From contig NC_057720.1 of assembly GCF_004010195.1 (NCBI RefSeq), forward strand, positions 91,585,319 through 91,637,271: a stretch of 51,953 nucleotides of DNA, read 5' to 3'. Below are positions 56-33,067 of the stretch, piece by piece; within the stretch, counting starts at the first letter, position 1; each line of letters opens with the position of its first letter. The stretch is from Chiloscyllium plagiosum. Taxonomy: Eukaryota. The position numbers and the translations under genes were made by a program. The notes under the pieces are model-generated. The model saw only the letters and a list, made by a program, of their open reading frames with translations. It ran no database searches and was not told where the DNA came from.

Positions 56-2640
56 TTATAAGTGTTGATTAATCCTGTTCGTCAGAATTGTTTCCAATAA
101 TTTCCCTCCCACTGGTGTCAGATTAATTGGTCTGTAATTTCCTGGTCTATCCCTGTCACTCTTCTTGAGTAAATCACAGCACGTCAGCAATCCTCCAGTC
201 ACCTGGCACTTCACCTGTGGCCAGTGAAGTTTGAATATCTCCTTCAGGGTTCCAGCAATCTCCTGCCTTGTCTCCCATAGCAGCCTGGGATACATTTCAT
301 TAGGCCCTGGGGATTTATGCAACTTTATGCCTTCTACAACATCCAATACTTCCTTCTTACCAATAATAACATGAACTAGAACCTCATTATCAGAAGTAAA
401 ATCTCCAGCTACAATGTCTTTCTCCTTTGTGAATGCAGATGAGTAAATTTCATTTAAGATCTCATCTACGTCCACACAAAGATTGTCCCTTTGGTCATGA
501 ATAGATTTCACTATTTCCCTGGTCATCTTCTTCCCCTTAACATCCATATAAAATGTTTTGGGGTTCTGCTTGATCCTATCTCAAAGATATTTCATAGTCC
601 CTCTTTACCCTCCTAATTTCCTTTTTAAGTACCCACCCAGTACACTATACTTCTGAAGGCTCTCCCCTGCTTTTAATTCTCTTTATGTGACATATGCTTC
701 TTTCTTTTTTTATCAAACTCTCACTATCCTTTCACATCCCAGGCCCCCTTGGTTTGCTGTCCCTGTCCTTCACACTAAGGGGTTCACGCTGTCCCTGAAT
801 TCTCACGATACCACTTTTAAAAGATGCCCACTTTCCAAATATAGACTGACCTGCAAGTAGCTGCTCCCAGTCTGCTAGATCCTGTCGAATGACATTGAAA
901 TTGGCCTTCCCCAAATTAAGACACAAATTGTGCACTGTCTTTATCCCTTTCCATAATGACTTTAAAATTTACAGAGTTGTGGTCACTGTGCTCACCCATT
1001 GACACTTCAACCACTTGACCGGCATCATTCCCGAGCTCTGCCCCATCTCTACTGAGACTATCTACGAACTGGAACAAAAAGATCTCCTGGATGGATTTCA
1101 AAATTTCCGTCCTGTCTGATCCTTTCACACAAAGGCAATCCCATTTCACACAAAGGTAATCCTAGTTAATTTTCACAAAGTTGAAATTCCCTCTTAACAT
1201 AACCCTATTCCTCCAACATCTCTCTGTGATTTGCCGACGTTTCTGCTTTTCTATCTCCCTCTGACTATTGGGAGGCCTGCAGTATAATCCCAATGAAGTG
1301 ATGACACCTGTTTTATTTCTTAGTCCACCCAGATGGCCTCATTTGAAGACACTTCTAAGACATCCTCCCTCATTACTGCAGTGATGGTTTGTGAATAATG
1401 CAATGCCCCCTGTCTCCCTGCTGCATGCCCCCATCCCGCCTGAAACTTCTTTATCCTGGAATTTTAAGCTGCAAGTCCTGTTCTTCCTCCAACCGTGACT
1501 CAGTCATTGCAACAATGTCATATTCCCACATGCTCATCAACGTCATACGTTCATCTGCCTTATTGGTCAAGCTCCTTGCATTAAAATAGATACAATTTAG
1601 CTTTCTGGTCCTCCCATGTTCCATATCCTGCCTACGTCTCCCTGGTGGTTACCTAATGCTTTTCTGTCTGTGTGGCCCTCCATGAGGGGAAACATCAGTT
1701 TATCCTGTTAAGCCCCTTAAGAATCCTATATGTTTCAACGAGATTGTCATTCATTTTTCTAATCTCCAGCAAGCAGATTTCAAACCTTTGCGCTTTGATC
1801 ACAGGACAGCCCCTCCACCCTGAGGATCATCCCAGTGAACCTTCTCTGATCTGCCTCCATGTTTTCATAAATAAGGCAACCAAAACTGTTCACAGTACTC
1901 CAGCTGTGGTCTCATCAGCACCTTGTACACTGGCAGTAAGAATTCCCTCCACTTATGCTCCAACCCCCTTGAAATAAGGGCCAACATCCCAATAGCTTTC
2001 CTGATTCCCTGCTGCTCCCATGCGCTAACTTTCTGTGTTTCAGGCACTTTAATGTTGCAGCTTTCTCAGTTTTTCTCCATTTAAATAATATTCTGTTGTT
2101 TTGTTCTCCCTACCAAAAGATACAACTTCACGTTTTTCCACATGAAACTTCATCTGCCAACCTTTCCTCACTGACCTAACCAATAAATATCTCTCTATTA
2201 AATGTTTGTATCACACTTGTAACTTGCCTTTCTCCCTATTATTGTGCCATCTGTAATTGTGGTTACAGTACAATCACTTGCTTCTTCCACGTCACTGATA
2301 AATATTGTAAACAGTTGTGGCCCCAGCACTGATCCCTGTGGAATGCCAATGGTCACAGGTCACCAACCTGAAAAGGAACCCCTTATTCCCACTGAGCTCA
2401 CTCTGATCTTCAGTATGATTTTGAGTCCTCACTATCTGCCATAAACTTCCCCCTTTTTCCTTCCCAAACCTGTCCATCCCTTGATATCCAGGGTTCTCTG
2501 GCCTTGTTGGTCCCACCCTTCACCTTTACAGGAACATGTTGACCCTGCACTCTCACTATTTCCTTTCGGAAAGAGTCCCATTGTTCTGATGTAGATTTTC
2601 CTATAAGGAGCTGCTCCCAGTCCACTTCAGCTCGCTCCTG
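56..2640 (-). mobile_element. Degenerate CR1-clade LINE ORF2 fragments (several pieces)
   Basis: ORFs contain CR1 motifs KSPGPNEMYPRLL, PGNYRPINLTPVGGKLLE, GEHSDHNSVNF and RPQLEYCEQFWLPY, broken by stops and frameshifts. Confidence 0.85.
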
Positions 2641-2959
2641 CTTCATTGGTGGCTCTGGCACCACATGCTGGCCAGACCAGGAAGGAGGGTAGATTTCCTT
2701 CCCTAGTGAACCTGATGGGTTTTTATGAAGTTTGTCAATTGTTTAATGGTCATCACTGGATTCATCGCATATTGCAGCTGGAAAAGATCCTTTGGTCCAT
2801 TATCAAGCAGTTGCCTCAACTCATCCCACTGTATGTGTGTGAGAGTGTGAGAGAATCAGAGAGTTTGTGTGTATGTGTGTGTGCGTGTGACTGTGTGTGA
2901 GCGTGGGAGAGAAAGAAAGAGAGAGACCCCCACCTTCTCCATTTTGTTTGCACCATTAC

Positions 2960-4520
2960 GTTTGTCACCGGACTGCTCCACAGGCCGTGGTAATGACAAA
3001 TGGCTCCACCACTGACCTATTTCCCACTGGGACTGATGTCAAATAGGGCTGTATCATCGCCCCAACACTGTTCTCGATCTACCTCACTGCAATGTTTCCT
3101 TTCACCCCCAACAAGCTCCTTGCTGGAGTGGAGCTAACTTACAGAACCTGTGGGAAATTATTCAACATCTGCTGCCTTCAAGCTAAAACCAAAGTCAGCC
3201 CAACCAGTGTCATCGAGCTGCAGTATGCAGATGATGATTGTGTGTGTGCAATCTCAGAGAATGTATTCCAGACCATTTTCAGCATCTTTACTGAGTCACA
3301 TGAGAGCATGGGTCTCACCCTGAACATCTACACCTGAAGATTAGATTACTTACAGTGTGGAAACAGGCCCTTCGGCCCAACAAGTCCACACCGCCCCGCC
3401 GAAGCACAACCCACCCATAACCCTACATTTACCCCTTACCTAACACTACGGGCAATTTAACATGGCCAATTCACCTGACCTGCACATCTTTGGACTGTGG
3501 GAGAAAACCGGAGCACTCGGACGAAACCCACGCAGACACGGGGAGAACGTGCAAACTCCACACAGTCAGTCGCCTGATGCGGGAATTGAACCCGGGTCTC
3601 TGGTGCTGTGAGGCAGCAATGCTAACCACTGTGCCACCGTGCTGCCTACATCCTACACTAACCTGGTCTGGCATTGTGGAGCAAACTCCTGATCATCAAG
3701 GTCCATGAGGAGGCCTGAGAGAATGTTGACTACTTCCAATAACTCAGAAGTCTCCTGTCAGCCAAAGCAACTGTTGATGAAGAGATCCAACATCACCTCC
3801 AATGTGTTAGCACAGTCTTCAGCTACTTGAGCAAAAGGGTGTTCGAAGACAACAGCATCAGATCCAAGACCAAGCTCATGGTTTACAGAGCTGTGGGGGT
3901 TCCCAGCCTTCAATATGGCTCTGAGACATGGACTGTCAGAGCAAACACCTCAAGGCGCTGGAGTAGTATCACCAATGCTGCCTGCTCAAGATCCTGTGAA
4001 TCAGCAGGGAAGACAGACATACTAACACCAGTTAGTCCTCAAACAGGCTAATATCCCCAGCATCAAGGCACTGACCATTCCTGATTGGCCACGATGGGCT
4101 GGGCACATCGTCTGCATGACCGACACAAGACTCCTCAAGCAGGTGCTCTACTCCCAGCTTCGACACAGCAGGCAAGCCCCAGGCGGACAGAGGAAGTGGT
4201 TCAGGGATACCCTCAAGATCTCATTGGCAAAGTGCTGCATTCCCCAGGCACCTGGTATTCACTGGCCCAAAACTGTCTAACGTAGAGGAGGAGCATCCAG
4301 GAAGGTGTCGGGCATCCCGAGACTTGCCACCAGGAAAAAAATGGAAGCCAGGCTAAAACAGCAGAAGGGACACACTACCACACCAAAGTCCCAATCCACC
4401 CCTTCACTTGACCACCACTTGTCCCACGTGTAACAGAGCCTGTGGTAGCCACATCAGTTTGTGCAGCCACCTACAGACTCACTCTGAGGGTGGAAGAGAG
4501 TCATCCTTGTCTGCGAGAGA
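2960..4520 (+). mobile_element. Degenerate RTE-clade LINE (RT and C-terminal region) interrupted by a SINE
   Basis: Motifs ELQYADD, KTKLMVYRAVGVPSLQYGSETWT and a WAGHIV-like segment are typical of RTE ORF2. Confidence 0.8.
3338..3645 (-). mobile_element. tRNA-derived shark SINE (HE1-like)
   Basis: The - strand starts ggcacagtggttagcattgctgcctcacagc with a B-box (ggttcaattcc) and ends in a (tctaa)n tail. It is near-identical to the copy at 39773-40078. Confidence 0.85.
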
Positions 4521-5028: not shown

Positions 5029-5052
5029 TGGAACTCAGAAGAGAATGCTTTG

Positions 5053-5362
5053 ACTGGAGACTGTAATGGATGCACGGGTGTTCTAGATGGAGACTGCAAT
5101 GGATGAATGGTGCTCTGGATGGAGACTGCACTGACTGAATGGTGTTCTAGATGGAAACTGCACTGGATGAATGCTGCTCTGGATGGAGACCGCACTGAAT
5201 GTATGGTGCTCTGGATGGAGTCTGCACTGGATGAATGATGCTCTGGATGGAGACTGCACTGGATGAATGATGTTCTGGATGGAGACTGCACTGGATGAAT
5301 GGTGCTCTGGATGGAGACTGCACTGGATGAATGGTGCTCTGGATGGAGACTGCACTGGATGA
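5053..5362. repeat. 32-bp minisatellite, about 9.5 copies (ctggatggagactgcactggatgaatggtgct)
   Basis: Tandem units are directly visible and produce the repetitive ORFs 4893-5420 and 5083-5430. Confidence 0.95.
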
Positions 5363-11039: not shown

Positions 11040-11570
11040 GTTTTTAACTGGTAGGATAGACCAAGCAGGGGTGGCAACACAGTGGTGTGTACAGTCGGAA
11101 TTGGAGTTGCCCTGGGAGTCCTCACCATTAACTATGGAATCCATTAAGTCTCATGACAGCAGGTAATACATGGGAAAGGAAACCTCCTGCTAATTACCAC
11201 ATAACATCGCCCTCCCCTCCAACCTCAACTGAGCAGTCAGTCCTCCTCCATGTTGAACAACACTTGGAGGGAGCACTGAGGGTGGGAAGGATGCAGGATA
11301 TACCCTGAGTAAGGGACTTCAAAGTCCACCATCATGAGCTGCTCAGAAGCATCACTACTGAGCAAGCAGGTCAAGTTCCACCTGATTCAGCTGCTCGACT
11401 GGACCTGGGGCGGGTGGTGAGGGAACCAACAAGAGTGAAATACATACTCATTATCACCCTCACCAATCTGCCTGCTGCTGGTGCATCTGTCCATGACAGT
11501 ATCAGTAAGAATGATCACCGCACAGTCCGTGTGGAGACAAAATCCTGTCTTCACATTAAGATTACCTTAC
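11040..11570 (+). mobile_element. LINE AP-endonuclease domain remnant
   Basis: GDF-x-VHH-like sequence (gggacttcaaagtccacc), VREPTR and DHRTV endonuclease motifs. Confidence 0.6.
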
Positions 11571-12269
11571 ATTTTGTTGGGCAAGAGATATGGGATGTCA
11601 GAAATAATTTTGTTTTGAGCAGCAATTGGTAATGACTTGGAAATTAGTGCCCATTCAGGTGAAGCAGGTGAAGTCACTCAGTTATTGCAATGGCAGATTG
11701 GATGGGCTCTTGATGGAAATAAACCTGCAAGGCTCTGGGGGTCGAGTAGGGGAGGGGGTGGGACTGACTGGATTGCTCCATGAAATGACAGCATTTACCT
11801 GACAGGCTGAATGTTCTCCCCCTGTGCTGGAAATAGGTCTAACTCAGTGAGGGGTTCACAATTAGAGAGTTTGGGTGCAGTAAATACAGGACAAATTGTT
11901 TCTCCAGGCAGGAGGATCAGTAACCAGAGGGCACACATTTCAAAAAGGGTCTGAAGAACAAGAGAGAAGATAGGAACATTTTTATCCAGTGCGTTCATGA
12001 TGACTGTCTGCAAGGTGAGTGGAAGTGGATTCAACAGCAACTTTCAAAAGGGCATTTAGAGAAATAGCTGAAAAGGAAATAATTGCAGGGTTATACAGGA
12101 AGGGCTGGGTAAACGGGACACATTGGACTCATTTGACTAACAGTCATAATTGGCCCAGTGACCTCTGTCTGTGCTGTATAAGAGCTCACACACACTTAGT
12201 CTCACCTTTACACAAAGACTGGGAGAAACAGACAACCCAGTTTACAGAAGAGTGTTTTCTCAAGCAAAA

Positions 12270-14570: not shown

Positions 14571-15070
14571 NNNNNNNNNNNNNNNNNNNNNNNNNNNNNN
14601 NNNNNNNNNNNNNNNNNNNNNNNNNNNNNNNNNNNNNNNNNNNNNNNNNNNNNNNNNNNNNNNNNNNNNNNNNNNNNNNNNNNNNNNNNNNNNNNNNNNN
14701 NNNNNNNNNNNNNNNNNNNNNNNNNNNNNNNNNNNNNNNNNNNNNNNNNNNNNNNNNNNNNNNNNNNNNNNNNNNNNNNNNNNNNNNNNNNNNNNNNNNN
14801 NNNNNNNNNNNNNNNNNNNNNNNNNNNNNNNNNNNNNNNNNNNNNNNNNNNNNNNNNNNNNNNNNNNNNNNNNNNNNNNNNNNNNNNNNNNNNNNNNNNN
14901 NNNNNNNNNNNNNNNNNNNNNNNNNNNNNNNNNNNNNNNNNNNNNNNNNNNNNNNNNNNNNNNNNNNNNNNNNNNNNNNNNNNNNNNNNNNNNNNNNNNN
15001 NNNNNNNNNNNNNNNNNNNNNNNNNNNNNNNNNNNNNNNNNNNNNNNNNNNNNNNNNNNNNNNNNNNNNN
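14571..15070. other. Assembly gap (500 N)
   Basis: Run of N. Confidence 1.
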
Positions 15071-15210: not shown

Positions 15211-15308
15211 AGAGGAAGTATGAGGTACTGACGTGGCTCTCCCTGCCTGATGCTATTTACATACTGAGGAACACCCAGTCAGACTCTCACAAGCTGCAGC
15301 TTTATAAA
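15211..15308 (+). promoter_or_regulatory. Ig light-chain V promoter: PU.1/Ets site, TGACGTGG, variant octamer, TATA
   Basis: AGAGGAAGT 15211-15219, TGACGTGG 15229-15236, ATTTACAT 15255-15262 (1 mismatch to ATTTGCAT), TTTATAAA 15301-15308, about 60 nt upstream of the leader ATG. Confidence 0.7.
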
Positions 15309-15368: not shown

Positions 15369-15418
15369 ATGATTTCACACATCCAGCATGATCTGGCCCC
15401 TGGCATTCTGTGTCGCAG
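15369..15418 (+). CDS. IGKV: Ig kappa-type leader exon (L-PART1) with an apparent 1-nt insertion; alternative in-frame ATG at 15388
   Basis: Reads MISHIQ[+1]..IWPLAFCVA with a gcag|gtac donor. The 50 nt from the first ATG are out of frame with V, while the 31 nt from ATG 15388 are in phase 1. Confidence 0.85.
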
Positions 15419-15604
15419 GTACAAATCTCTCTGCTTCCACCTTGAATCTTTAGCTGCTCTCCATTTCACTCCAATTCCACTGACTTGTGATTGAAGGGAA
15501 AATGCTGAAACCAGAGGAATGCTCAGTGTCTCCAACAATCTCTCATTTGACAGACTCTTTCTGTGACAGTTCTGACTTCACTGTGTTTCTCTCTGACCCC
15601 TCAG

Positions 15605-15934
15605 GTATCAGTGGGGACATCATCATGACCCAGTCTCCCCCGGTGCTGTCAGTGGGACTGGGCCAGACCACAACCATCACCTGTACGGCCAGTCAAGACC
15701 TTAGCAACTACCTTTATTGGTACCAACAGCGAGAAGGTCAGAAACCCTCTCTCCTGATCTATGCTGCAACAAATCGATACACAGGAGTCTCCGATCGATT
15801 CACCGGCAGTGGATCAGGGACCGGTTTCACCCTGACAATCAGCAACGTTCAGAATGAGGATGTCGCTGACTATTACTGTCAGCACTATGACAGCTGGTCT
15901 ATTACGTTCGGTAAAGGAACCAAGCTCCGACTGA
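15605..15934 (+). CDS. IGKV: Germline-joined V-J exon, shark kappa (type III / NS4-like) light chain
   Basis: tcag|gt acceptor, then [12 protein letters not shown]...C...WYQQ...LLIY...[22 protein letters not shown], then a perfect a|gtaagt donor. No RSS lies between V and J. Confidence 0.97.
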
Positions 15935-16369
15935 GTAAGTAAACTTCAATCCTCCGTTATTATCCCTTTCAATCTCTAAACACAATTTCTAAAACACAAA
16001 TGTTGAATTGTTGAAGTGTTGCAGTGAATGAAATGTTTGATTGAGGAACACCATGTCCCATGGGGTGTACACCTGTGTCTCTTTAGTTCCATTGCCCCCT
16101 TTAAGCAGCAAGATATAAGTCAGTAAGTTTTACTCACTGTGTGGAGGAGCTCTGTCCATTTGCAGCCTGTGGTCCCATTCCTGCAGCATGGAGTGAAATC
16201 AGTGAGTGGCCTCCTGCCAGTCTCAGTGTGACGGACACGGGCAGAGTTTGATGTGAGCTCTGGCTCCCTGTCCCAGTCTCTGACCCCACTGACCTCAGCA
16301 GCAGCAGCAGCAGCAGCAGCACAGTGAGACACCGAGCTCCCCCCTCCCCCAGCTTTAACTCTGCTCAAT

Positions 16370-19300
16370 CACACAATCACACAATCACAGAATTGTTATA
16401 GCGCACACGGAGGCCGTTCTGCCCATCCTGTCTGGACCGGATCTCAAAATGAGCAATTCACTTGAGTGTCATTCTCCTGCCTTCTCCCTGTCACCCTGCA
16501 CATTGTTCCTTTTCAAATAACAATCTCATTCCCTTCGGAATGTTTCAATTGAAGCTGCCTCCACCACACTCTCAGGCAGTGCATTCCACACCTTAACCAC
16601 CCACTGGTTGAAAATGATGTTCCCCATCTCACTTTTGTTACTTTTTCCAATTACTTTAAATCTGTGGCCTCTCAGTCTCAATCCTTTCTCAAGTGAGAAC
16701 ATTTTCTCCCTATTTACTCTGTCCAGGCCCCTCTTGGTTTTAATTCCTCGATCAAATCTTCTCTCAGCCTTCTCCAAAGAAGACAGTCCCAAATTCTCCA
16801 AACTATCTTCATAACTGATGTTCTTCATCCCTGGAATGATCTTTGGGAATATTTTTTGCCATTTCTACAAAGCTTCACCTTCTTCCTGAATGATTCACAT
16901 TATCTATGTCCCTCATGGTTTTATAAACCTCTATATTGTCACTCCTCAGACTCTTACACTTAGGGTAAAAAAGTCTCAGCTTTTTCCAGCCCCTCATAGT
17001 CATGGAGTCATACAGCGTGGAAACAGACCCTTTAATCCAACTTGTCCATGCTAACCAGATATCTTAAACTGACCTCATCCCATTTGCCAGCATTTGGCTT
17101 ACATCCCTCGAAACCCTTCCTATCCATGTACCCATCCCAATGTGTTTTAAATGCTGTAATTTGATCTGCCTCCAACACTTTCTCTGGCAGCTCGATCCAG
17201 ACGCGCATCACCCTCTGTGTGACAAGTTACCCCTCAGGTCTCTTTTGAATCTTTTCCCTCTCACCTTAAACCTATGCTGTCTTCTTTTGACTCCCTTTCC
17301 TAAGGAAAAGACCTTGGATATACACCCTGTCCATGCCCCTCATGATTTTATAAAGAACTATAACATCACCCCTCGGACTTGGATGCTGCAGGGAAAATAG
17401 GTCCAGTTTCTTCAGTCTCTCCTAACAGCTCAAACCCTCCAGTTCCTGGTTACGTCCTTGTAAATCTTTTCTGCAGCTTTTTAAGTTTAGCATCACCCTT
17501 CCTTTCACAGGATGATCAGAATTGTTCTAAAGCGGCCTAAAGCGGCCTCACCAATCTCCTGTATAGCTGCAACATGATGTCCCAACTCCTGTACTCAATG
17601 TAGTGACCAAGAAAGAAAAGCGTACCCAACGCCTGCGACTCCACTGTCAAGGAATAATCCACCAGCACCTTCACCATCGGTCTCTTTGTTCAGCAACACT
17701 CCACAGGGCCCTACCAATAACCGTATCGTCATATTTATCTGAATTAAACTCCATCTCCATTCCTCAGCCCACTGGCCCAGTTGGTCAAGATCCTATTGCA
17801 CTCTGAGACAGCCTGCTTCACTGTCCACGATGCCACCTGAAAATTCACCTGAACACACTCTCACAACTCTAGCCCCTCCCTGCCCAATACACTGTTACTA
17901 CTCCAGTCTATATTCAGAAATTAAAGAGCCCACCCCCCATTTATAATAACTCTATCATATTTGCAGTTCTCCTGTAAATTCCTTGCATTTGTATTCCTCT
18001 ACATCCTTCCCACTGGGTGGTGACTTACTGACTGCACATAGGATTCTGTGGTCCTTGGTGTTCCTCTTTGATATTTCCCCCTGGCTCCCACAGCCCTGCA
18101 AAGGTAGCTTAAACCATCTCCAACAGCACTAATAAATCATCCCAAAGGAACTCAGTCCCAGCTCTGCTCAGGAGCAACCCCGTTTAGTCTATTCAGGTCC
18201 CATCTCCCCTAGACCCAGTCCCAATGTCCCAAGAATCTAAAGCCCGCCTTCCTGGAACCCTCTTTCCTGCCCCACAGTCACCTGTGTTATCCTCCTCACT
18301 TGCATGGGATACTGGGAGTAATCCAGAGAATCCTACTTTTGAGTTCCTGTTGCTAATTCCCTCCTGAGTTCCCTAAATTCTGACTGCAGGACCATATCCC
18401 TTTTCTCCCTCTGTCACTGGGACTGATGTGGACCACAACTGCAGAATGTTCCCCCTCTCTCCTCAGGGTGCTCTGCAGCCGCTCAGTGACATCCTTGACC
18501 GTGGCACCAGGGAGACAACACACCATCCTGGATTTCCATCTGCAGCTGCAGAAACACCTATCAATAGCCCTCACTCTCGAATCTCCTCTTACTATCGCTC
18601 TTCTCGTCTTCCTTGTGCCCCTCTGTACAGCTGAGCCCTCCCCATGGTGCCAGGGACTTGGCTCTGGCTGCACTCCCCAGATGAACCATCATTCTCATCA
18701 GGATTCTGATCTAAATCCTAGTTGGAGAGTGAGATGCACTGAGGGGATTCCAGTACGAGCAGCCTGGTCCTTTTGGACTGTCTGCTGCTCCCCCATTTCC
18801 TCTTTCCCTGCATACTCTGAAGCTGCAGAGTGACCACATCTAGAAACGTGCTCTCCACAGAGCTCTCAGCCTCACGGACTCTCTGCACTGACACCAGCTG
18901 CTGCTCAAGCTCCGAAACCTGGAGCTCCAACTGCTGTCACTGACCACACTTCCTACACTCATGGTATTCCAGGAGCTAGGAAGCATTCTGAAGTTTCCAA
19001 ATAGATGCACACTCTCTCCACTCTTCAGTTATCTCTTGGCAAAGTTCTGATAACAAACAGCTACAGCAGGGCTCACAGTCCAGTGGGTTCAGTGTTCCAG
19101 GGGTTTGGGGAAACTCTCCAGAAGACTTTAAGAAATAGGAGCAGAAATCAGCCATTCAGCCCATGGAATCTGCTCTGCCATTTGATCTTGGCAGATATGC
19201 TTCTCACCCCCATTCTGCTGCCTACTCCTCAGGAACCTTCCATCCCCTTAACAATCACGAACCTATCTATCTCTGTCTTAAATACACTCAGTGACTTGGC

Positions 19301-22300
19301 CTCCACTGCCCTCTGTAGCTCTGTTCCACAGATTCCCCATGCTCTGGCTGAAGAAATTCCTCCTCATCTCTGCTCTAAAGGGTTGGCCCTTCACTCTGAG
19401 GCTGTGCCTTGGTTACCGAGTCTGTCCTGTTTTTGGAAACATCTTCTCTGCATCCACCCTATCCAGACCTCTCAGTATTCTGTAAATTTCAATAAGATCC
19501 CTCCTCATCCTTCTAAACTCCATCGAGTACAGACCCAGAATCCTCAACCGTGCCTCATATGACAAGCCCTTCATCCCCAGGATCACTCTTGTAAGCCCCT
19601 CCAATGCCAGCACATTGTTTCTTAGAACATGGGTCCCAAATCTGTTCACAATATTCCAAATGCAGTCTGACTAGAGCCTTACACAGCCTCAGCAGTACAT
19701 CTCTGCTCTTGTATTCCGGCCCTATTGAAATGAATTCTATCACTTCATTTGTCTTCCCAAGCACAAACTGGACCTGCCTGTTAACCTGAAGAGAAACCTG
19801 AATGAGGTTTGTGCTTTAGATTTCCAAAGGCTTTCCTCATCTAGAAAACAGTCTTTGCATCTCTTCTTCCTCCCAAAGTGCATACCCTTACACTGTTACA
19901 CATTGTATTCTATCTGCCCCTTCTTTGCTCACTCTCCGAACCTATCCAGGACCTTTAGCAGCCTTCCCACTTCCTCAACACTACCTGTCCCTCCACCTAT
20001 CTCATGTCACCTGCAAACTTAGCAACAATGTCTTCACTTCCTTCATCCAGATTGTTCATGTATAACGTGAATAGTTATGGTCCCAACATTGACACATGCA
20101 GAACTCTACTAGTCACCAGTGGCCATTTTTCCTCATTCTCTGCTTTATGCCAACCTGTCCGTCCCCAGTCCATGCCAGTACAGTGCCCCTAACACTATGG
20201 ACTCTTAATTTATGTCAAAGGCCTTCTGGAAATCCAATAGATTACTTCCTTGGACTCTCCTTTGTCTGACTGGCTCAGTGCATCCTCAAAGAATTCTAAC
20301 ATATTTGCCAGGCATGACCTCCCTTGATGAAACCGTGTTGACTCAGCCTTATTTTACCATTGCACTTCCAAGTCCTCTGCAATTTCATCCTTAAATTGAA
20401 GTCTAAAACCTTACCAACAATAGTCCAGGCTAACTGGCCTATAATTTCCCATCTTCCAAACCCCTCCCTTCTTAAACAGGAGCCACTTTCTATTTCCTTG
20501 CCCCCATCAAATCCCTCCCCACCCCACCTCCACACCCTGACTCCATTGATTCCTGAAAGATCATCACCAATGTCCCCACAATCTCCTCAGTGATCTCCTT
20601 CAGAACACATGGGTGAAGTTCATCCAGTCTGGGTGATTTATCCACATTCAGACCTTTCAGCTTTCCCAGTACCTCCTCCTTAGTGATGGCCACTACACTA
20701 CCCTTTGCCCCCTGACAGTCTTGAAGTACTGGTATTCTGCTGGTGTTTTCCATTGTGCAGACTGATGCAAAGTATCTATTCAATTCCTCTGCTGTTTCTA
20801 TTATTCTTTCTTCAGCCTCATTTTCCAGCATTCCAATGTCTACTTTTGCCTCCCTCTTCCTTTTCATAAATCTGATAAAACTCTTGCAATCTTCTTTTGT
20901 ATTACTGGCCAGCTTACCCCCACATTTCACCTTCTCCAGCATTAATGCTTTTTTCGTTATCCTCTCCAGGTTTTTAAAGACTTCCTAATCCTCTGGCTTC
21001 CCACTATTCTCCACCATATTGTATGCCTTTTCTTTTGCTTTTATGCTGTCCTTGACCTCCCTCATCAGCCATGGTTGCCTTGTATGTTTCTTCCTTTTTG
21101 GGAAGAGTTCCTGCTCTGCTTCCTGAATTACCCCCAGAAACTCTGCTGTTTGCTGCCCCACCGTCTTACCTGCTTGGCTCCCCTTCCAATCAACTCTGGC
21201 CAGCTCCTTCCTCATGTCTTTGTAATTCCCTTTACTCAACTGAAATACTGTTCCATCTGATTGCAGCTTCTCCCTCTCAACTTACAGGGGGAGTTCGATC
21301 ATATTATGGTCACTTATCCACAGGGATACTTTCACCTTAAACTCACTAATCAAGTTTGCCTCATTACACATCGCTGAATCCAGAACTGCCTGTTCCATAA
21401 TGGCTCAACCACAAGCTGCTCCAAAAACCATCTCATAAACATTCCATGAAATCCTCTCCTTGAGACACGCTACCCAGTCCACCTATCCATTGAAGTCTGC
21501 CCTGACATTTTGTATCTGGCTTTTCTGTCTCCTGATTGATTTTCTTCCCCACACCCTGATTACTGCTTCGAGACCTGGACATAACTTGCATCAGATTCTT
21601 TATTTATTGCGATTCCTCAACTCTACCCACACAGATTCTACACCTTCTGACTCTCTATCACTTCTTGCTATTGATTGAATTTTATTTCACACTAACAAGG
21701 CCCTCTGCCCATCTGCCTGTCCTTTTGATAGGACACGGATCCTTGGATATTTAGTTCCCAGCCCGGATCCCCTTACAGCCATGTCTCTGTGATACCCACA
21801 ACATCGTACTGCCAGTTTCAATCTGCACGACAAGCTCATTGTGTATACTGTGTGCTTTAAAGTACAACACCCTCAGTCCTGCATTGACTGCCCTCCTTCT
21901 CATCATTGTCCTCTTATCTGCTGGGCTTTACGTTCGACTCCTGATCCTGTCCGTTTATATCTTCTCGAAACTTAAATAATCTCCCCTGAGCCCTCCTCCA
22001 CTTTAACTAGGTTAAATTCCTTGGAAACTCAGTTTACTTGGATTTGTGGCATCACTTTGTCTACCTTACTCAGAATGCTTTGTGCATTTAGTTACAACCT
22101 CTTTAAGTTTGTTCCATTATTGATTTTCCCAGCACTTCTTTGATCCTTTGATATTCAAAACTTCCGTCCCTACCTTTTATTTTCTGGTAACAATCAATCC
22201 CATCACTAACCAGCAATCCTACCTTCTCCTTCACCTTCTGTTTTCTCATTTTCCATCCAACTGAACCAAATTACTTTCTCTTTGGGTTGACTTCATGCAT

Positions 22301-25300
22301 GGTGGCTCAGTGGTGAGCACTGCTACCTCACAGCACCAAGGACCTGGGTTCAATTCCCCCCTTGGGAAATTGTCTGTGTAGTGTTTGCACATTCTCCCTG
22401 TGTCTGTGTGGGTTTCCCCCAGATGCTCTGGTTTACTCCCACTGTCCAAAGATGTGCAGGTCAGGTGAATTGGCCATTCGAAATTGCCTATAGTGTTAGG
22501 TGAAATAGTCAGGAGTAAATGTAGGGAAAGTTTCTGGGTGGACTGCTGTTCGGAGGGTTGGTGTGGACTTGTCAGGCTAAACTGCCTGTTTCCACACTGT
22601 AGGGAATCTAATCAGGCCAATATTTATCATTAATCCAACATCATTATTGCTCTTTGATCTGATTGCTTCTAGTTGGATCTTGCTGTGTAGAAACTGGCTG
22701 CCACATTCCTAACATTGCAACAGTGACTGCTTGTCAAACAAAACTGTTTGTAAATGTCTTTGGGAGAGCCTGAAATGTTAAGGGCTAGATTGATGCCCAT
22801 ATCCCTCTAAACTCTTCCTATTTACATATTCATACCTTTTAAATGCTGTAACTGTACCAGCCTTCACCACTTCTCCTTGCAGCTCATTCCATACATTTAA
22901 CACCCTCTGAATGAAAACGTTGCCCCTAAGGTCCCTTTTAAATCTTTCCCCTGTCACCTTCAACCTATGCCCTCCAGTTCTGAACTCCCCCACTCTGGAG
23001 AAAAGATCTTCTCTATTCACCCTATCTATGCCCCTCATGATTTTATAAACCTTTATATGGTCACCTATCAACCTGCAATGAGCCAGGGAAAATAGCCTCA
23101 GCCTATTCAGCCTCTCCCTTTCGCACAAATCCTCCAACCCTGGCAACATCCTTGTAAATCTTTTCTGAACCATTTTAAGGTTCTCAACATTTTTCCTGTA
23201 GCAGGGAGACCAGAATTGCACACAGTATTCCAAAAGTGCCCTAATCAAGGTCCTGGACAGCCACAGCAGCTCCCAACTCCAATACTCAATGCACTAACCA
23301 ATAAAAGAAAGCAAACCAAATGACTTTGTCACCCCCCACCTATCTGCAACTCCACTTTCAGGGAACAATTCTTCTTTTTTTGGATGAACTGGGAGTCTCT
23401 CAGTTGTGAAAGATGCCATTCATGGCACTGTTGGATGAAGTGCAGGCAGTTCCCCCTGGTGTCCCTGATCAATATTTATCCCCAGTCAAAATCACTAAAA
23501 ATGTATTTCTCTGCTAATTATCCCACGGTGTTTGGGATCTCGCTGTGCACAGTCTGCAGGAAAGAGCCATTGGGACATCCTGAGTTGAAGACAGGTGTGA
23601 CACAAATGCAAGTCTTTCTTTAAGATTGGAGTCTCCTGATCCGGACCCTCACCCATTGTCTGCGCACTGTCACCTTCCAGGGGGCATGGGGTCATTAGGA
23701 GCAGTGACCCTGTCTGACCCTAGGACACTGAGACTCTTTGCAGCCTCACCCTTGATGTCAGCTCAGTGGTGTGCAGCAAGGTTTGAAATGTAATCTAGAA
23801 CCTTCTACACTGACACCCAACGTGACTATTTCCCGAAGTGTGTGGATCCGAGTCTGCTCCAATGTTTTGTGATAAATCTCTCCTGATCTGTGGGTGATCA
23901 GAGGTTTGTTAAAGAGGTATCGAGCTCCATCCCACTTTCCAGCTCTTGCTCCACAGCTCTGGAGGTTTCGCTGTTTGAAGTGAATAGCCAAGTGTTTTTT
24001 CAATGTGATGAGGGTTTCTACCTCTCCCACCCTTTCAGAAAGTGAGTCCCAGATCCCACCAACCTGTGGGTGAAAACAAATGCCCTCAACTCCCCTATAA
24101 CCCTGCCCCCAACTGATTTCAATCTCTCCCCATGGTTATTGCCCTCTGTGCTGGTGGAAATCATCCTTCCTATCCACTCTGAAAGGCCCCTTATCATTTT
24201 ACACACCACCATCAAATCTCCCGTCAGCCACCTCTGTTCCAAAGAAAACACTCCCAGCCAAACCAATCATTCCTCAAATCTCAAAGTCCCCATTCCAGAC
24301 AAACTCCTCCTCTGTCCCCGTCTCTAATAGGATAACATCCTTCCTGTAATGTGGTGACCAGAACCGTACACTGTTCTCTCCCTGTGCTCTAACTGGGGTT
24401 TTATTTCGTTCCAGAATAAACAAACTCCTTGCTTTCACAGTCAACCAAAAATGAGATAAGGAAGGGAATGATCAAATGGTATTATTGCTGAACTGTTAAT
24501 CCAGAGATCCAGGTAATGTTCTGGGGACCAGGGTTAGAATCCAGCAGATGGTGGCATTCAAATTCAATCAAAACAAATCTGCAATTAAGAGTCTAATGAT
24601 GACCATGAAACCATTGTTGATTGTCAGGAAAAAAACCATCTGATTCCCTAATGTCCTTTCGGGAAAGAAACTGCCATCCTTACCATGTGACCCCAGACCC
24701 ACAACAATATGGTTGACTCTAAACTGCCCTCTGGGTGATTAGCGATGGGCAATAAATGCTGCCAATTCAGCAATTGCCCTCATTCCATCAAGGGAAAATG
24801 AAAAACAGTTTATCACATGTGTCTTCTTAACCACCTTACTGACCTGCACTAATCACCATTGCCACATCTTCCACCTCCACACACATTTGACTTCCAGCTT
24901 CAAACTGATGAGAGACATTTCTTCATTATCTGAGAAACAGATAGATACATCCAAACTAGGAGCAACAGTAGGCCATTCGGCCCCTCAAGCCTGCTCCATC
25001 ATTCAATATGATCATAGCTGATCATCCAACACAGTCCCCTGTTCCTGCTTTGTTCCCAAATTCTTTGATCCCTTTAATCCAAAGAACTATATCTAATTCT
25101 TTATTGAACACATACTGCATCTAATTCCCTCATGTTGGAAAAATGGATGACAATTATTGAGTTGTTGTTTTTTGACCAGTATGGACACAAAGGGCTGATG
25201 GGCCTTTTGAGTCTTTCTGACTCGATGACCCTATTATTATATTTTATGAATAACTGAGTACCAAGTACTGACCCCCTGTGGCACCCTAAGTTGTAACTAC

Positions 25301-25560
25301 CTGTCATTCAGAAAAAGACTCATTCTTTCTGTGCTGTCGGCCAACCAGTACCCAATCCATGTCAGTACATGACCCTCAATCCTCTTGTTCATTTGGTTTA
25401 GATCTGGAAGGCCCACCCTTACTCTTTGTGGGAACAGATTCTGAACGATCTCTGTCTCATCCTTCAAGGACTCCCATTGTCTTGACACTGATTTCCCATC
25501 ATGCCATTGGTTCCGATCCACTTTTACCAAAGCACCACACAGTTGAGTAAAATGAAAACT
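16370..25560. mobile_element. J-C intron filled with nested CR1 LINE fragments (mostly -), including an ORF1 SGNH-esterase remnant at ~18100-18960
   Basis: ORF1 motif AIVRGDS...VCCLPGATVKDVTERL and ORF2 motifs KSPRLDELHP, LEYCVQFWSP and QRVLNVWNEL. Confidence 0.85.
22296..22614 (+). mobile_element. HE1-like tRNA SINE present only in duplication arm 1
   Basis: Runs ggtggctcagtggtgagcactgct...ggttcaattcc...tctaatca. The paralogous site in arm 2 (~50840) is empty. Confidence 0.9.
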
Positions 25561-25906
25561 TTTACACTTGCTCCATGGTTCTTCATTTCCATCCCTACTC
25601 TCAATCTCACTGAGTTCTGAGCACTGTCACTAAAATGCTCCCCCATTGATAGCCCTTCCAGCTTTCCACTTTCATTTTATAAACAATGGTCCAAAACTGT
25701 CCCTTCTCTCTCTGCTGCTTCACCATCACCTTCTCAGGGGCAATTAGGGATGGGTAATAAATGCTGGCCCTGCCAGTGATACTCACATCCCAAGAAGCAA
25801 TTTGAACAATGCCTGGTCGTTTGTTGGGTTTATTCTGTATTGACTAAAAATGTTCAAAAAGATTGTATGGCCAGTGAATATTATAATTTCTCCTCTTATC
25901 TTTCAA

Positions 25907-26235
25907 GCAGTGAGAACTCTCAGCCCAAGCTGAACCTGCTGCCCCCTTCCCTGGAGCAGGTCAATGCCAAGGGCACTGCCACCCTGGTGTGCCTTGCCAA
26001 TCACTTCTATCCCGATGAGCTGGAGGTGCAGTGGAAGAAGGACGATGCAGTCATTTCAGACAGAGTTCAGACCAGCAAATACCTGCGAGCTTCGGACAGC
26101 ACCTACAGTGTCAGCAGCCTGCTGACCCTCTCTGGGTCTGACTGGGAGTCCAACGCTCGCTTCTCCTGTGCCCTCACCCACGTGACCCTCCCCTCTCCCC
26201 TCAGCAAGAGCATCAGGAGATCAGAATGTGTGTAG
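25907..26235 (+). pseudogene. IGKC: Ig kappa-type constant exon 1; ORF intact but splice acceptor mutated (AG>AA)
   Basis: C1-set motifs LLPPS, ATLVCLANHFYP, W, YSVSSLLTL, FSCALTH and C-terminal SECV*. The acceptor reads tttcaa|gc versus tttcag|gc in the paralog. Confidence 0.85.
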
Positions 26236-26835
26236 AGTGTTTGAGACAGTCCCCAGAGGAGACACAATTTTAAATAGAACAGGGCTGAGCTGGCAGGACA
26301 AAGGTCATTGTCAGCACTGAATTTCAACTCTCTTCCTTCCCAGGATTGCTCAGAGAACCTTCTGAGGTTTGGATGTTAAAGCAAGTCATTGGGATAGCGG
26401 CGAGAGAGCTTTACACTCTGTCAAACCTCATACTGTCCTTGTCCTGGGAGTGTTTGATGGGGACAGGATTGCCTTGTGATGTCAGCTGCACAAAACAATG
26501 TGAACCTCAGAATTCTCTGCTTCAGTAAACCAGATCTCCTTCCTGCTCAACTGCTAGTTCCAATTTAAGGTTTTATCACTGACTAAAGGGACAGGATTCT
26601 CGTGTTGTTGAGAAAATCTCTCCAAGTGTTTTCCTCAAGCTCCATTGTGGTTGTGAATTTGAGCAGCTTCCTCTGTCTGGGCTGTTAATTGCAGTTGTGT
26701 TTTTCTGTCAATGTGAATGTGGAAAAGGGAGTAAAGATGAAGATTCAGTCTCTGTCTCTGTGTGCTTTGGAAATAGCTGACTTCAACCCCCCACCCGTCA
26801 GCTGATTGGCTTCATTTCAGCAGGTCATTGTCACA

Positions 26836-26925
26836 TGAAGGGCTTTTGCCCGAAACATCGATTTTGATGCTTCTCGGATGCTGCCTGAACTGCTGTGCTC
26901 TTCCAGCACCATTAATCCAAAAACA
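26836..26925 (+). mobile_element. Short Penelope terminal-repeat fragment with a truncated hammerhead core
   Basis: atgaagggcttttgcccgaaac...gatgctgcctgaactgctgtgctcttccagc, the same family as 38728-38935. Confidence 0.7.
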
Positions 26926-27620
26926 TTGTCACAGTTGGTTGCTTGGCCTGTCAATCAATTTCAGTCAAGAATCATCAATCATTTTCAAATGATCCCTTTG
27001 ATCAGGAATATATGTAGATTCCAAAAAGAACTGAAACTGAAAGCTGTTAGGACTCAATAAGTGCAATCTGATGCATTCCCTCTTCACTCTGTTGGTCCAG
27101 ACCCAGCTGATGGGATCGAACTTTGCTGCATGTTAGTTAGCCCCTGAAACAATCTTCGGCCATTCACAGACATTGTTGGCTGAGTGCCTCTCTGAGTGTG
27201 AGTGTTTAACTTAATACTGCCTGTAGGTGTCTCTCTGAGTGTAGGTGTGTTATTCAGAGAAACACCCACAGACAGCGCTCAGTAACACTCCCACATTCGG
27301 CGAGACACCTGTCTGCAGCATGGCGTGTGAGCATGTTACTCAGTGCTGCCTGTCTCACAGTGTGAGTGTGTTACTTAGTGCAACCTGTAGGTGTCTCTCT
27401 CAAGTGCGAGTGTGTTACTCTGTGCTGCCTGTAGGTGTCTCTGAGCGATGGATTGAGAATGGGCTTTGTGCTGGGGATTGAAGATGAGGCTTTAATCTTC
27501 TCAAATTATGAATGAAAAACAGTTCAGCTGATTCAATCTGAGATGGTAGCTCATTCAGATGGCCAAAGTTAAAAAGCACACAACACTAGGTTATAGTCAG
27601 ACAGGTTTATTTGGAAGTAG

Positions 27621-27649
27621 AAGCTTTCGGAGCGCTGCTCCTTCATCAG
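27621..27649 (-). ncRNA. Minimal hammerhead-ribozyme-like motif in a Penelope terminal fragment (~27565-27690)
   Basis: The - strand reads CTGATGA-A-GGAGC-agc-GCTCC-GAA-AGCT-T. Confidence 0.6.
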
Positions 27650-28483
27650 GTAGCTGGAATGGCAGGATCATTGGACACAGAGTTTATAGTAAATTGAGAT
27701 GGCAGCTGAAAAAGGTGAATACTGAGAGTGTATTCTCGGTAAGTGAGGGATTTCAGAGGCAGTGGGCACTGTGCTCCCGAATGTATTGCTCAATTCTGAG
27801 GGGATTTTCTGAATCCAGGGTCAGAGCAGTCGTGGCTGCCTGCCCAGCCAATGCTGGCTCCCCATAGTCATATTTCAGTGGTTAACTAACCCAAAACTAG
27901 GTGCAGCAATATTACCTTCCAGGGAAGGGAGTTGTCTGAGGGAGGGAGGTTGAACTCTTGCAGCCCCAAGAGAGGTTGCGGTGGATTAATGACAGGTATG
28001 ACCACCATGAGGATGCCACCTTCTCTCCCCCTGCCCCAGCTGTGATGACCCTCAGGTTAAAAGTGTGACTGCTCTGGGATGATGACCATGTTCCTGGTGA
28101 TGGAGGGAAAGCCAACCTCTCCCAAAGGCAGCACAGGCTGGATAGAAGGGGCATCAAAAGTAAGCATGGGGAGATTGAGGGGGACGGAAGGAGGGGGTTG
28201 GTTGGCAGGTTGTTATTCAGAGTCAGGTCCCAGAGCATCAGTCCTTCTGACACTCCCCTTTTTATCTGTCAGCCAGGATTCCCTGACTGGACAAAGTTAA
28301 CTGTCCCTGTCAGGGAACTCATATTTTATCAAAAAGAATAAAGCATTTATTGAACAAGGAGCTCAAATGCTAAACAACACTAGACAAAATGAATGGTTTG
28401 AAAGGTTTCATCATGGACACCGCAAAAAAGATTTGGGGAAGACCGTTTTCACTCAGTGGGTGGTGGGAATCTGGAATGGACAG

Positions 28484-28785
28484 TCATAGAATCCCTACTG
28501 TGAGGAAACAGGTCATTTGGCCCAATAAGTCCACACTGACCCTTGGAAGAGTAACCCATCCAAGACCCAATCCCCTCTCCCATTACTCTACTTTTGCCCT
28601 GACTAATGAACCGAATCTACACATCCCTGATCACTATGGGCAACTTAGCATAGCCAATTCACCTAACCCGCATGACTTTAAATTGTGGAAGGAAACCCAG
28701 AGCACCTAGAGGAAACCTACGCAGACACTTAGAGAATGTGCAAACTCCACACAGACAGTTGCCAGAGGCTGGAATTAAACCTGGG
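28484..28785 (-). mobile_element. HE1-like SINE (shared with arm 2, 44635-44937)
   Basis: Similar to the other SINE copies (gtgcaaactccacacagacagt). Confidence 0.85.
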
Positions 28786-28789
28786 TCAA

Positions 28790-30770
28790 AACACTCGGAC
28801 TGGCCTTGACTTCGTTCCAGCCTCTGCCTCCACTTCTGGCCCCACCCACTCTGCAACCAAGATTCAGACTGCATTTCCCAGAGTCATCCTGAGTCCAACT
28901 GCCTACCTGCAGCCAGCCAACACACTCGCTCTCCCTCTTCACCCATCCATCCCCACAGTGCACCCTATTCCTCCACTTTTCCCTCTTCACCTTGTCCCCA
29001 CCTTCCCACTCCCCCACCTCACTCCACAACCCAGCTCTGTCCCAATCTCCTTTCTCTCCCACACCCATTCCCCCGTGCTACATCACAATCGACCCTCACC
29101 CACCACATGCCAGCACCCTTCCCCTCTCCCCTCCTTCAGCCAACTTGGGTCCCCCGAAAACCTCACCGCTGAGCCTTGCCCCATATTTACTATCCTCCCT
29201 GACCTCGAAGTTTCTGAGGCCAAAAGGAGAGGGCTCACAGTCATTCCCGCCTGACTCCACCTCAACGAAACCCGCACCCACCACGACGCAGAGCTCTTCT
29301 TCCACCGCCTCTACCTCCGTGTCTTCTTCTTTAACAAAAACTCCCAAACTCCCTCTGAGCAACCCTCCTCCCACCTCCAACCTTCCTCCTCCATTTGGTC
29401 ACCCCACCCCCACCCCCCACCACCAGCTGTGTACACACCCGAGACCTCTTCATTGCTGATTGTTGATGTGCCATCAGCCACCTCAATTTCTCCCCTCATA
29501 CTCTCCAACCACACCCCCTCCGATCAAGCACTCCACTCTCTCTGCGCCAACCCCTGGTTCACCATCAAACCCGCTGACAAAGGTGGGGTGCTATTAGTCT
29601 GGAGAACAGACCTAAATGTCACAGAGGCTGAACCCCAACCACTTTCTACTCCCCCTTGCTCATAACCCCGCCGTGACCCATCAGGCCAAAATCACTCGCA
29701 CTGTCAGTGCCCCCATTGCCTTTAGTGATCTCCCCTCCACTGTCTTCAATCTCATAGTCCCCTAGCCCTGCATTGCCCAGTTCTACCTGCTCCCCAAGAT
29801 CGACAAGCCCAACTATCCGGCTGACCCATCGTCTCAGCATGCCCCTGCCCCACCGAACTCATCTCGGCCTACCTCAACTCTCCTCCTTGGTTCAGGCACT
29901 GCCCACCTACATCCACTACACCAACCATGCCCTCATCTCTTCAGAAACCTCCAGTTCCCCAGCCCTAAGTGCTTTATCTCCACTATGGATGTGCAGTCCT
30001 TATATATGTCCATACCCCACAAGGATGGCCTCCATGCCCGACACCTTTTCCTCTGCAACAGACCCATCCAGTCCCCCTCCACCAATACGTTCCTCCGGCT
30101 TGCCAAACTGGTCCAGGGGGTGGCCATGGGCACTCGGTTGAGCTATGTCGAACAGTCCCTCTTCAGTGACTATACACGCACTGTGCCCCAACTCTTCTGC
30201 CATTCCAACCTAGTTCACTGGATCAGGTGCCTACGATGTGGTCTTCTCTACATTGGGAAGACCAAACATAAACTTGGGGAACGTTTCACCGAGCATCTCA
30301 GCCAGGCCTGCAGGGGCCAACCAGACCTCTCAGTCACCGCCCATTTCAATTCCCCTTCCCGACATGACCATCATCAGACTTCTCCATTACCACAATGAAT
30401 CAAACCACAAATTGGAGGAACAATACCACATCTTCCGTCTGGGCAGCCTACAGCTCAGATGACTCAACATTAAGTTCTCCAATTTCAAATAACCACTCTT
30501 CCCTTCCCCCAACTCCCTTCCCAGCCCTATCCCTCCCTTCCACTCCTCCCTGCCACCTACCAGATACATTCTTCCCATTGACCAACGAAGTTGTACCATC
30601 TACCTGTCATCACCAATCCCCACTTCATCATCCTGTCCTCACTACCCCCTTTATCTGCAGCTTCCTCTACATCCCACCCCATTCCTGAAGAAGGGCTACA
30701 CCTGAAACATCTCCACCACCTGATGCTGCCTGGCTTGCTGTGTTCTTCCAACTCCTGCCTGTCATTGAAT
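28790..30770 (+). mobile_element. Degenerate Penelope-like element (RT plus GIY-YIG)
   Basis: Motifs IKPADKGG, KIDKP, MDVQSLY, GVAMG and NLVHWIRCLRCGLLYIGKT, with a hammerhead-like core at 30685-30711. Confidence 0.88.
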
Positions 30771-31683
30771 GGAACCAGCAGGAAAGGGTTAGATCATCAA
30801 GTGTCAGGGCCATCAACAAATGGGAATGGGGCATGCTACAGATAGATGCATTGAGATGGTCAATCACAAAGATAAGACCAAACTGGAAATGCAACACTAA
30901 TACACAGTGGATGGAATTTAATGTCAGAAAGTGTGAGATTTTGCACTTGGGTCAGAATAATCTAAAGGCCGACTATTATTTAAATTGTCAGAGAGTCCAA
31001 TAAAGTGCAGTACAGAGTGATCTGGGTAGTATTGTGCATGAAACACAGAAAGTTAGTGCAGGTACAGCAAGTAATTGAGAAGACGAAAGGAATTTTCACC
31101 TTTATTGCTGGGGGTTGGAATTTAAAAATAGAGAAATCCTATTAAAAAGATAGAGGGTGTTAGTGAGTCTGCATTTGAAGTATTGTGTGCAATTTTGGTC
31201 CTTGTATTTAAGAAAGGATGGACAGCTATTGGAGTCCTCCTTCTGTTCCTATTTCCCATGTCCTTGTGTGCTCCAGTGTCCTTCCCTCACAGCAGAGCTC
31301 GTTTGGAGCCTGCCTGCAGTAGCAGCCTCCAGTCTCTGGGTGGTGCTGCCAAAAGATCTGCCTTGCCCAGGCTGTCACAGTTCCCACATGACAATAATGT
31401 CTGGACTTTGGAAGTATTCCATTGGCTGTAAAACAGTTCCAAACATCCTAAGTTCAAGGAACGTATAACACATATATAATTCTCTCTCCTTTTATATTTT
31501 ATCTCCATGTCTTCCCAGCAGTCACCTGACAACATCACACACTTGTGTAAAATCTAGAATGAATTATGAATCTCTAGGAGAACTTAATCTATGACAATAC
31601 TGAGACTATTGACCACCTCCCCAGTGGGCTTTGAGGGTGAAGGTCAACAGCAGTCTCACTGGGACTTGATCTGGGTTATCTTG

Positions 31684-32250
31684 CTCATCATCGCATTGTT
31701 TGTCTGTTAGGCTTCTGTGGATGAAATTGTGGAAATATCCATTCTTGGCAAAGTCTTTGTAGACGTGTTCTTCTCTTTGCAGGTCGGGAGTGCTGCAGTG
31801 TGTTGTCGCCCTTAGGAACAGAGGCCTAATGCAGCTTCTCCTGTGTGTGTTTGGGATCTGGTTTTTTGTCCACTTTTGTTGTGCATTCACCATTCTGTGC
31901 TCTTTCTACCATCACTTCCAAAAGTGGGATTTGGTTGTTAATTTCTTCCTCTTTCCTAAATTTGATCCCTGAGAACATGGTGTTGCTAATCCAGTGTGTG
32001 TTCTCGATCTCTGTACTCTATTATCATAAAAGTGTCGTCCAAAAATCTCATCCAGAATTTGGGTTGGATTTGTGGGATGGCTGTTTGTTCTAGTCTTTGC
32101 AACAGCGCTTCCTAGGAGGCTCCAAAGCCCTGAAGGTATCACCTAAACAGGGGATGAAACGTCTGCAAATCAACTTCCCAGCTCGGCCGAACACACCCAC
32201 AACCATGGCAAGCAGCACCCGAGCTACAAATCTGTGCACAAACCTTGAAC
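31684..32250. mobile_element. Second-family Penelope remnant at the inner boundary of arm 1
   Basis: - strand ORF HRRSCIRPLFLRATTHCST...FAKNGY, plus a + strand terminal piece with a degenerate hammerhead core at 32130-32163. Confidence 0.75.
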
Positions 32251-32650: not shown

Positions 32651-32943
32651 TTGAACCCTCTGAAAGTATTGCCCCCATGCCATTTATTCCCTCACTGAAG
32701 CCAGTGAGAGAAATTGACAGCTGTGGGCCCAGTATTGAGCGCTACGGGATACACTAAGCACATGCAGGCAACCTGAAAGGGCTTCTCTCAGGATACTTGA
32801 ACCCTCTGAAAGTATTGCCCCCATGCCATTTATTCCCTCACTGAAGCCAGTGAGAGAAATTGACAGCTGTGGGCCCAGTATTGAGCGCTACGGGATACAC
32901 TAAGCACATGCAGGCAACCTGAAAAGGCTTCTCTCAGGATACT
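32651..32943. repeat. 146-bp near-perfect tandem duplication (2 copies)
   Basis: ttgaaccctctgaaagt...caggatac repeated at 32651 and 32797, with one mismatch seen. Confidence 0.92.
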
Positions 32944-33067
32944 GTTTCCTGCTGGGCTGACAGTCTTTCTAAAGGATATTTCCTTCAGAGAGCACTGTTT
33001 CAAAAGTTCAACAATTTGAATATTTTAAAAGTGGAGGTAGCACACTTTTATTGCACAAAATTTCAAG

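Follow-up and report, generated by a model that had tools for sequence, protein, structure and literature searches.

A probable old germline V-J join in a bamboo-shark kappa light-chain cluster that is now probably a pseudogene

The stretch of Chiloscyllium plagiosum DNA analysed here (51,953 nt, hereafter the window) contains one kappa (NS4-type) light-chain cluster in the order leader, V-J and C on the plus strand. An assembly gap of 500 N occupies positions 14571-15070. The contig that follows is gap-free to 46570 and includes V-J as well as C; the gene begins some 300 nt inside it. An octamer-like promoter element (15255-15262, plus strand) shows one mismatch to the octamer consensus ATTTGCAT, and a putative TATA-like box lies at 15303-15308 on the same strand. 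The leader exon (15369-15418, plus strand, 50 nt) was placed from the sequence and from contigs of four of the 24 sequencing runs listed, of which X1 and X9 are DNA-like and X15 and X16 were guessed to be RNA. It is separated by a GT..AG intron of 186 nt (15419-15604), the distance jumped by the RNA joints, from the joined V-J exon (15605-15934, plus strand, 330 nt). The V-J exon follows a CAG acceptor (AG at 15603-15604), begins in phase 1 and has a single open frame from 15607; directly behind it, at 15935, stands a GTAAGT donor. This intact donor opens a J-C intron of 9,972 nt (15935-25906) with retroelement fragments inside, beyond which the C exon (C1-set, 25907-26235, plus strand) was identified by profile match and alignment. 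The C exon of a second kappa cluster, with an intact acceptor, lies on the minus strand at 47121-47449, tail to tail with the first. No second V, J or leader was found within the window.

The Pfam V-set profile covers residues 9-108 of the V-J exon (profile positions 1-107 of 109, E 1.2e-18). Both V and C have open frames, no core V residue has been lost, and the CDR3 has nine residues, QHYDSWSIT. The best protein matches are kappa models of Chiloscyllium punctatum and a nurse shark chain (81-87%). V-J is 82% identical to nurse shark chain P0030 and 41% to lambda model P0069, and C is 89% and 46% identical to the same two proteins, values that rule out a shark lambda (type II) identity. Judged from these alignments, V, J and C are all of kappa/NS4 type. 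By eye, the NS4 J primer printed in the available part of PMC2193156 matches the window exactly at 15907-15924.

V runs in frame into J in the genomic DNA, with both RSSs and the intervening sequence gone and both introns kept. A processed (retro) pseudogene is ruled out by the presence of the 186-nt and 9,972-nt introns, in agreement with an earlier sequence-only reading of this DNA, which had also assigned the locus to a kappa type joined in genomic DNA; the single open V-J frame and the identities to P0030 and the lambda model uphold that assignment. We scanned the whole window for RSSs with 12- and 23-nt spacers, allowing up to three mismatches. One match with a 12-nt and four with a 23-nt spacer were obtained, none of them within 11 kb of the junction; the four sit elsewhere in the window, two of them inside a repeated element. 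Between 15840 and 15960 there is no heptamer with fewer than two mismatches.

Split paralogues of the V-J exon exist in the contigs of X1 and X9 and, among close protein models, in P0001, P0005, P0039, P0074 and P0075, and the contigs place the V-J junction in the interval 15898-15906. The split V sequences depart from the window after 15897 and continue for four (X1) or six (X9) further coding bases into a heptamer; in X1 the signal can be followed through the heptamer and the 12-nt spacer into the first bases of the nonamer. The split J, read from its own heptamer, meets the window sequence at 15902-15904 and has seven coding bases ahead of the Phe codon, and these points of divergence and rejoining fix the junction at 15898-15903. 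The earlier claim that V passes straight into J without heptamer, nonamer or spacer is thus borne out both by the empty scans around the junction and by the paralogues that carry signals at exactly these ends. From Cys to Phe the window has 27 bases as opposed to 29 or 31 for untrimmed split ends, and therefore a net 2-4 coding bases have been lost. The same reading had proposed that alignment to split V and J segments would define trimming and N/P nucleotides. It did so for the trimming, but no P nucleotides are clear enough to be assigned, and the Ile codon at 15901-15903 matches neither side, being unlike every split V end and split J start seen. At this position the split-J read-throughs listed carry L, F, Y, V or G, and none has Ile. 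It could derive from the 3' end of a parent V not seen here, from a J codon with two later changes or from N addition. Chance is not a candidate explanation for the in-frame join.

A second copy of the join appears to exist in a related species. The C. punctatum gene model P0073 (XP_072429442.1), located on a 135.9-Mb contig, is identical to the window at 98 of 109 V-J residues and shares with it the CDR1 QDLSNYLY and the junction end SWSIT-FGKG. Of the 42 shark kappa V rows aligned, the 40 others all lack two CDR1 residues (L and Y) that the pair has in common, and a tree built without CDR3 placed the window and P0073 as sisters with support of 98/91. By plain identity P0031 ties with P0073, each differing from the window at 8 of 85 positions, so the link between the window and P0073 rests on the rare shared residues and the junction. 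The two also differ: each has private V changes, framework positions included, and the P0073 CDR3 starts QQHY instead of QHYD. The P0073 model, annotated only as 'kappa light chain-like', also differs in its J-C boundary, which is normal, and in its first exon, which is not the leader. The shared junction ending, the identity over 98 of 109 residues and the sister position make it very likely that the join is inherited, as had been proposed, and the search for the same junction in related sharks that had been suggested found it in this model. Two copies that differ at 11 residues and carry the same odd junction most plausibly descend from a single old germline join and were later separated by speciation or by duplication. 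A join private to this locus or assembly, which had been raised as possibly lineage-specific, does not fit a diverged second copy that carries it.

The sequencing runs add little at the junction itself. No contig of X1 or X9 spans 15898 or 15901, and no X1 contig carries the window letters at 15700, 15885 and 15889; contigs of this kind drop rare variants. In the flank, X1 has an exact 136-nt match to 15973-16108 at a depth of 21.8 compared with 1,600-3,000 nearby, a low, single-locus-like value. Among the RNA pieces listed that cross the junction (X15 record 16; X16 records 22 and 23) there was no close match, each having 6-11 other letters. When runs were searched with words from the window, none of the 20 runs with matches contained as many as half of the words, and no RNA run was among those listed. 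A metagenome scan with a leader-intron stretch gave no match, and an exact look-up of five window frames in a protein collection returned none of the five.

The leader of the cluster is disrupted in the one assembly available for this comparison. An extra A at 15388 lengthens the leader exon to 50 nt from the normal 49. It causes a frameshift and is itself the first base of a second ATG, which is in frame. By depth, this base is left out in every covering contig (1/1 for X1, 1/1 for X9, 24/24 for X15 and 19/19 for X16), and the normal leader is present in 40 of 80 stored proteins while the shifted leader is present in none. From the normal ATG the shifted frame stops at codon 50 (15702-15704, plus strand), inside V and 230 nt before the J donor; by the 50-nt rule, nonsense-mediated decay is therefore predicted. 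In start context the first ATG, with A at -3, is as good as the second. The ATG at 15388 would provide a 14-residue leader that keeps a hydrophobic core (best 9-residue mean 2.24 vs 2.32 in the normal leader). An alternative leader acceptor at 15610-15611 would restore the frame at the cost of the hydrophobic core (1.01 vs 2.32) and was rejected; among the RNA joints listed, none ends at 15612. The leader sits about 300 nt from the assembly gap. By eye, the NS4 leader primer in print (window 15371-15388) has its 3' end exactly on the extra base, so that a standard NS4 PCR screen would likely miss the window allele.

A further lesion lies at the other end of the J-C intron. The splice acceptor of the C exon (25905-25906, plus strand) reads AA in the window cluster and AG in the neighbouring cluster, again in one assembly. 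RNA contigs of X15 (22) and X16 (29) that pass from J into C start the C exon at the homologous base, which confirms the position of the acceptor. All five AGs within 25880-25935 are out of frame, and the four in-frame AGs within 25700-26060 have weak pyrimidine tracts (0.21-0.58 vs 0.89). Splicing to one of these, at 25860 (tract 0.42 against 0.89), would yield a full chain carrying 15 inserted residues. The nearest cryptic acceptor adds eight residues, and without J splicing the frame ends two residues after J. The neighbouring cluster has 34 extra nt about 25 nt upstream of its C acceptor, including a branch-point-like motif. In the window C exon there are five private amino-acid changes within a 104-residue block and one before it, six in all. 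Elsewhere, private C changes number 0-2 in 12 Chiloscyllium and Hemiscyllium models, three in the neighbouring C and six in the more distant nurse shark chain, so that five or six against three in the neighbour is a modest excess. From its sequence, J is predicted to be able to splice only to out-of-frame or weak acceptors. Because of the leader frameshift and the lost C acceptor, the window cluster is predicted to make no normal light chain, contrary to the fixed-CDR3 chain that the sequence-only reading had implied. We also considered the octamer mismatch as a third lesion, and dropped it because the same element is common to relatives: P0001 and P0024 read through the octamer stretch as IYILRN, and an X1 contig over 15255-15377 has two letters unlike the window, tabulated at 15292 and 15367.

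Taken together, we favour, with a probability of roughly 0.8, an old, inherited join of RAG type made in a germ cell in a bamboo-shark kappa cluster that is now likely a pseudogene. The V-J spacer, about 500 nt long in the nurse shark, would have been excised in the germ line by a RAG-type cut and join, with the net loss of two to four coding bases, before the window copy and P0073 diverged (11 of 109 residues differ). The joined copy would then have become fixed and later decayed to loss of function, translation from the normal ATG now running into the stop at codon 50 and the transcript presumably into nonsense-mediated decay. That RAG acted here, in a germ cell, is an inference drawn from Lee et al. 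2000 (PMC2193156), the available part of which describes six germline-joined NS4 genes (R4, R7, R18, RE18, R6 and R19) among about 50 in the nurse shark. It argues for RAG from P bases and complete signal removal, sees little TdT activity in the germline joints, and dates the joins to between 7 and 49 million years at the earliest, with presence across animals. R4 and R18 are expressed in pups, and two of the six, R6 and R19, are pseudogenes, R19 with stops and a CDR3 frame problem and R6 with many disruptions.

The window cluster resembles these nurse shark genes, as far as the available part of the paper describes them, in isotype, cluster layout, the 186-nt leader intron, the loss of both signals and the presence of joined and split paralogues in one genome; it has the leader intron, the J-C intron and the one C per cluster of the joined NS4 layout. 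It differs in belonging to another shark family and in a junction that is tied, by protein, to a C. punctatum model. The leader frame and the J-C splice, expected to be intact in functional joined genes of the R4 and R18 type, are not intact here, and the cluster is probably a pseudogene like R6 and R19. Its join is in frame and it is disabled at the leader and the C acceptor, unlike R19 and R6, which are disrupted otherwise. The window cluster is also like the all-joined shark lambda (type II/NS3) genes and the joined sigma-2/IgM1gj gene of the neonatal antibody in that V-J is fused in the germ line with the introns kept, but those genes are described in the available parts of PMC5192425 and PMC4279169 as expressed and functional, whereas the window cluster is of another isotype (41% to the lambda model) and predicted to be non-functional.

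The join could be germline and the gene still work, if the extra base and the AA were assembly errors or marked one null allele, an intact allele then giving a fixed-CDR3 light chain early in life as R4 and R18 do in nurse shark pups (PMC2193156, available part). This fits the open V-J and C frames with their intact core residues, the normal J-C boundary modelled for P0073 and the position of the leader close to a contig end. It would, however, need two separate lesions 10 kb apart both to be errors when some 990 nt of V-J and two C exons are without an indel, and assembly errors among many similar copies should pull a sequence towards the commonest version, not away from it. The additional private changes in the C exon also speak against a working gene, as does the P0073 model, which likewise makes no use of the leader exon, and we consider this reading improbable. 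Alternatively, both lesions may be real and the locus still productive, with translation starting at 15388 to give the 14-residue leader and an intact V-J that is either C-less, from unspliced or mis-spliced transcripts, or spliced to C at a weak acceptor further upstream. Such a product would be in frame, would retain the hydrophobic core, and would end soon after J if unspliced, gain eight residues at the nearest cryptic acceptor or become a full chain through the AG at 25860. Yet the first ATG is in an equally good context and leads to the premature stop, the pyrimidine tract before 25860 is poor, and the private V changes in both P0073 and the window, framework included, resemble drift and not a conserved new role; a residual product of this kind is very improbable.

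Two other explanations concern the join itself. A B-cell rearrangement in the sequenced tissue, or an assembly chimera, may have replaced a split germline allele. A nine-residue CDR3 with a possibly untemplated codon is B-cell-like, the junction is uncovered by the X1 and X9 DNA contigs, and many V positions are unlike the paralogue majority. Against this, the same junction ending and the rare CDR1 residues occur in a separate C. punctatum model that differs at 11 residues, and the V end and J start have no overlap by which a graph chimera would be expected to form. The reach of somatic hypermutation is shorter than the 10 kb to the C acceptor, and the lesion there lies outside it. We put the chance of a somatic or chimeric origin as very slim. 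Equally slim is the chance that the join entered the germ line without a RAG cut in a germ cell, a rearranged DNA or cDNA copy having overwritten the V-J stretch alone by gene conversion. Codon 15901-15903 could be an N addition, whereas little TdT activity was seen in germline joints in the available part of Lee et al., and identical joined proteins occur under two C. punctatum accessions (P0028), which may mean that joined units are copied between loci. But the leader intron adjoining V has been kept, the codon may also come from the end of V or from a J codon that has since changed at two bases, and copying from another joined germline locus would only shift the origin one step back. A RAG-type join in a germ cell followed by decay remains the preferred account.

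On that account, the window locus adds to the class of germline-joined kappa genes known from nurse sharks since 2000, which in the literature searched are described from the nurse shark only and are the main evidence for RAG acting in vertebrate germ cells in recent evolutionary time. Our literature search, which covered mostly the main texts of openly available papers, found no report of joined kappa genes in bamboo sharks, and the available parts of PMC13433984 and PMC12227049 hold nothing on them. The window copy is probably dead and its direct biological weight is low. A join common to two diverged bamboo-shark copies, with joined-looking models in two genera, would offer dated natural experiments on how often such joins occur and whether they are kept or silenced.

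We examined ten chromosome-level kappa models of C. punctatum, taking joined status from the gene models. Five are joined-looking (P0027, P0028, P0034, P0036 and P0073), all with a nine-residue CDR3, and five are not (P0031, P0039, P0053, P0074 and P0075). A normal leader is lacking in all five of the former and in none of the latter (one-sided chance 1 in 252, calculated by hand), a pattern that may reflect real silencing or a habit of gene prediction. Counting against leader loss as a rule, the joined-looking P0038 (Hemiscyllium) and P0051 (from an older C. punctatum assembly) have normal-type leaders. The idea that bamboo sharks repeatedly make in-frame germline kappa joins and then silence them outside the join, chiefly at the leader, is doubtful, although it fits the leader pattern in these ten models, alongside which one divergent join with an 11-residue CDR3 has been retained in two genera. 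The reason for silencing would be that a light chain already assembled forestalls rearrangement and so restricts the repertoire, and the window locus would then be the first sequenced case; in a bolder form of the same idea, the ATG at 15388 would make the locus a C-less secreted V domain. P0028 stands for one joined-looking protein under two accessions (XP_072429389.1 and XP_072429392.1), possibly through duplication after joining. P0051 (GCC33278.1) and P0076 (XP_060696386.1) are divergent joined-looking kappa proteins from Chiloscyllium and Hemiscyllium that share a join with an 11-residue CDR3, and they form a long branch with support of 100/99 in the V tree built without CDR3. The Hemiscyllium P0076 lies on another contig (77 Mb) than the main cluster (116 Mb). 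The pair is a candidate for an old, conserved and functional germline-joined light chain.

The remainder of the window contains duplications and repeats. A large inverted duplication pairs 21181-31692 on the plus strand with 51953-41448 on the minus strand in blocks that are 81-92% identical. The V and J of the second, tail-to-tail kappa cluster lie beyond the window end, and its V-J should sit about 5 kb past it. The modelled first exon of P0073 is only 53% identical to window 11384-11575; this is probably another copy of a repeat and was not counted as synteny, and a repeat-like frame runs through 11309-11632 on the plus strand. Fragments resembling LINE reverse transcriptase, presumably CR1-like, occupy 32973-34563 and many shorter stretches and fill much of the window. 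A degenerate tandem array of units of about 64 nt is found at 5045-5362. At 32651-32943 a 147-nt unit is repeated almost perfectly in tandem (99.3%), which may be a recent event or an artefact of assembly.
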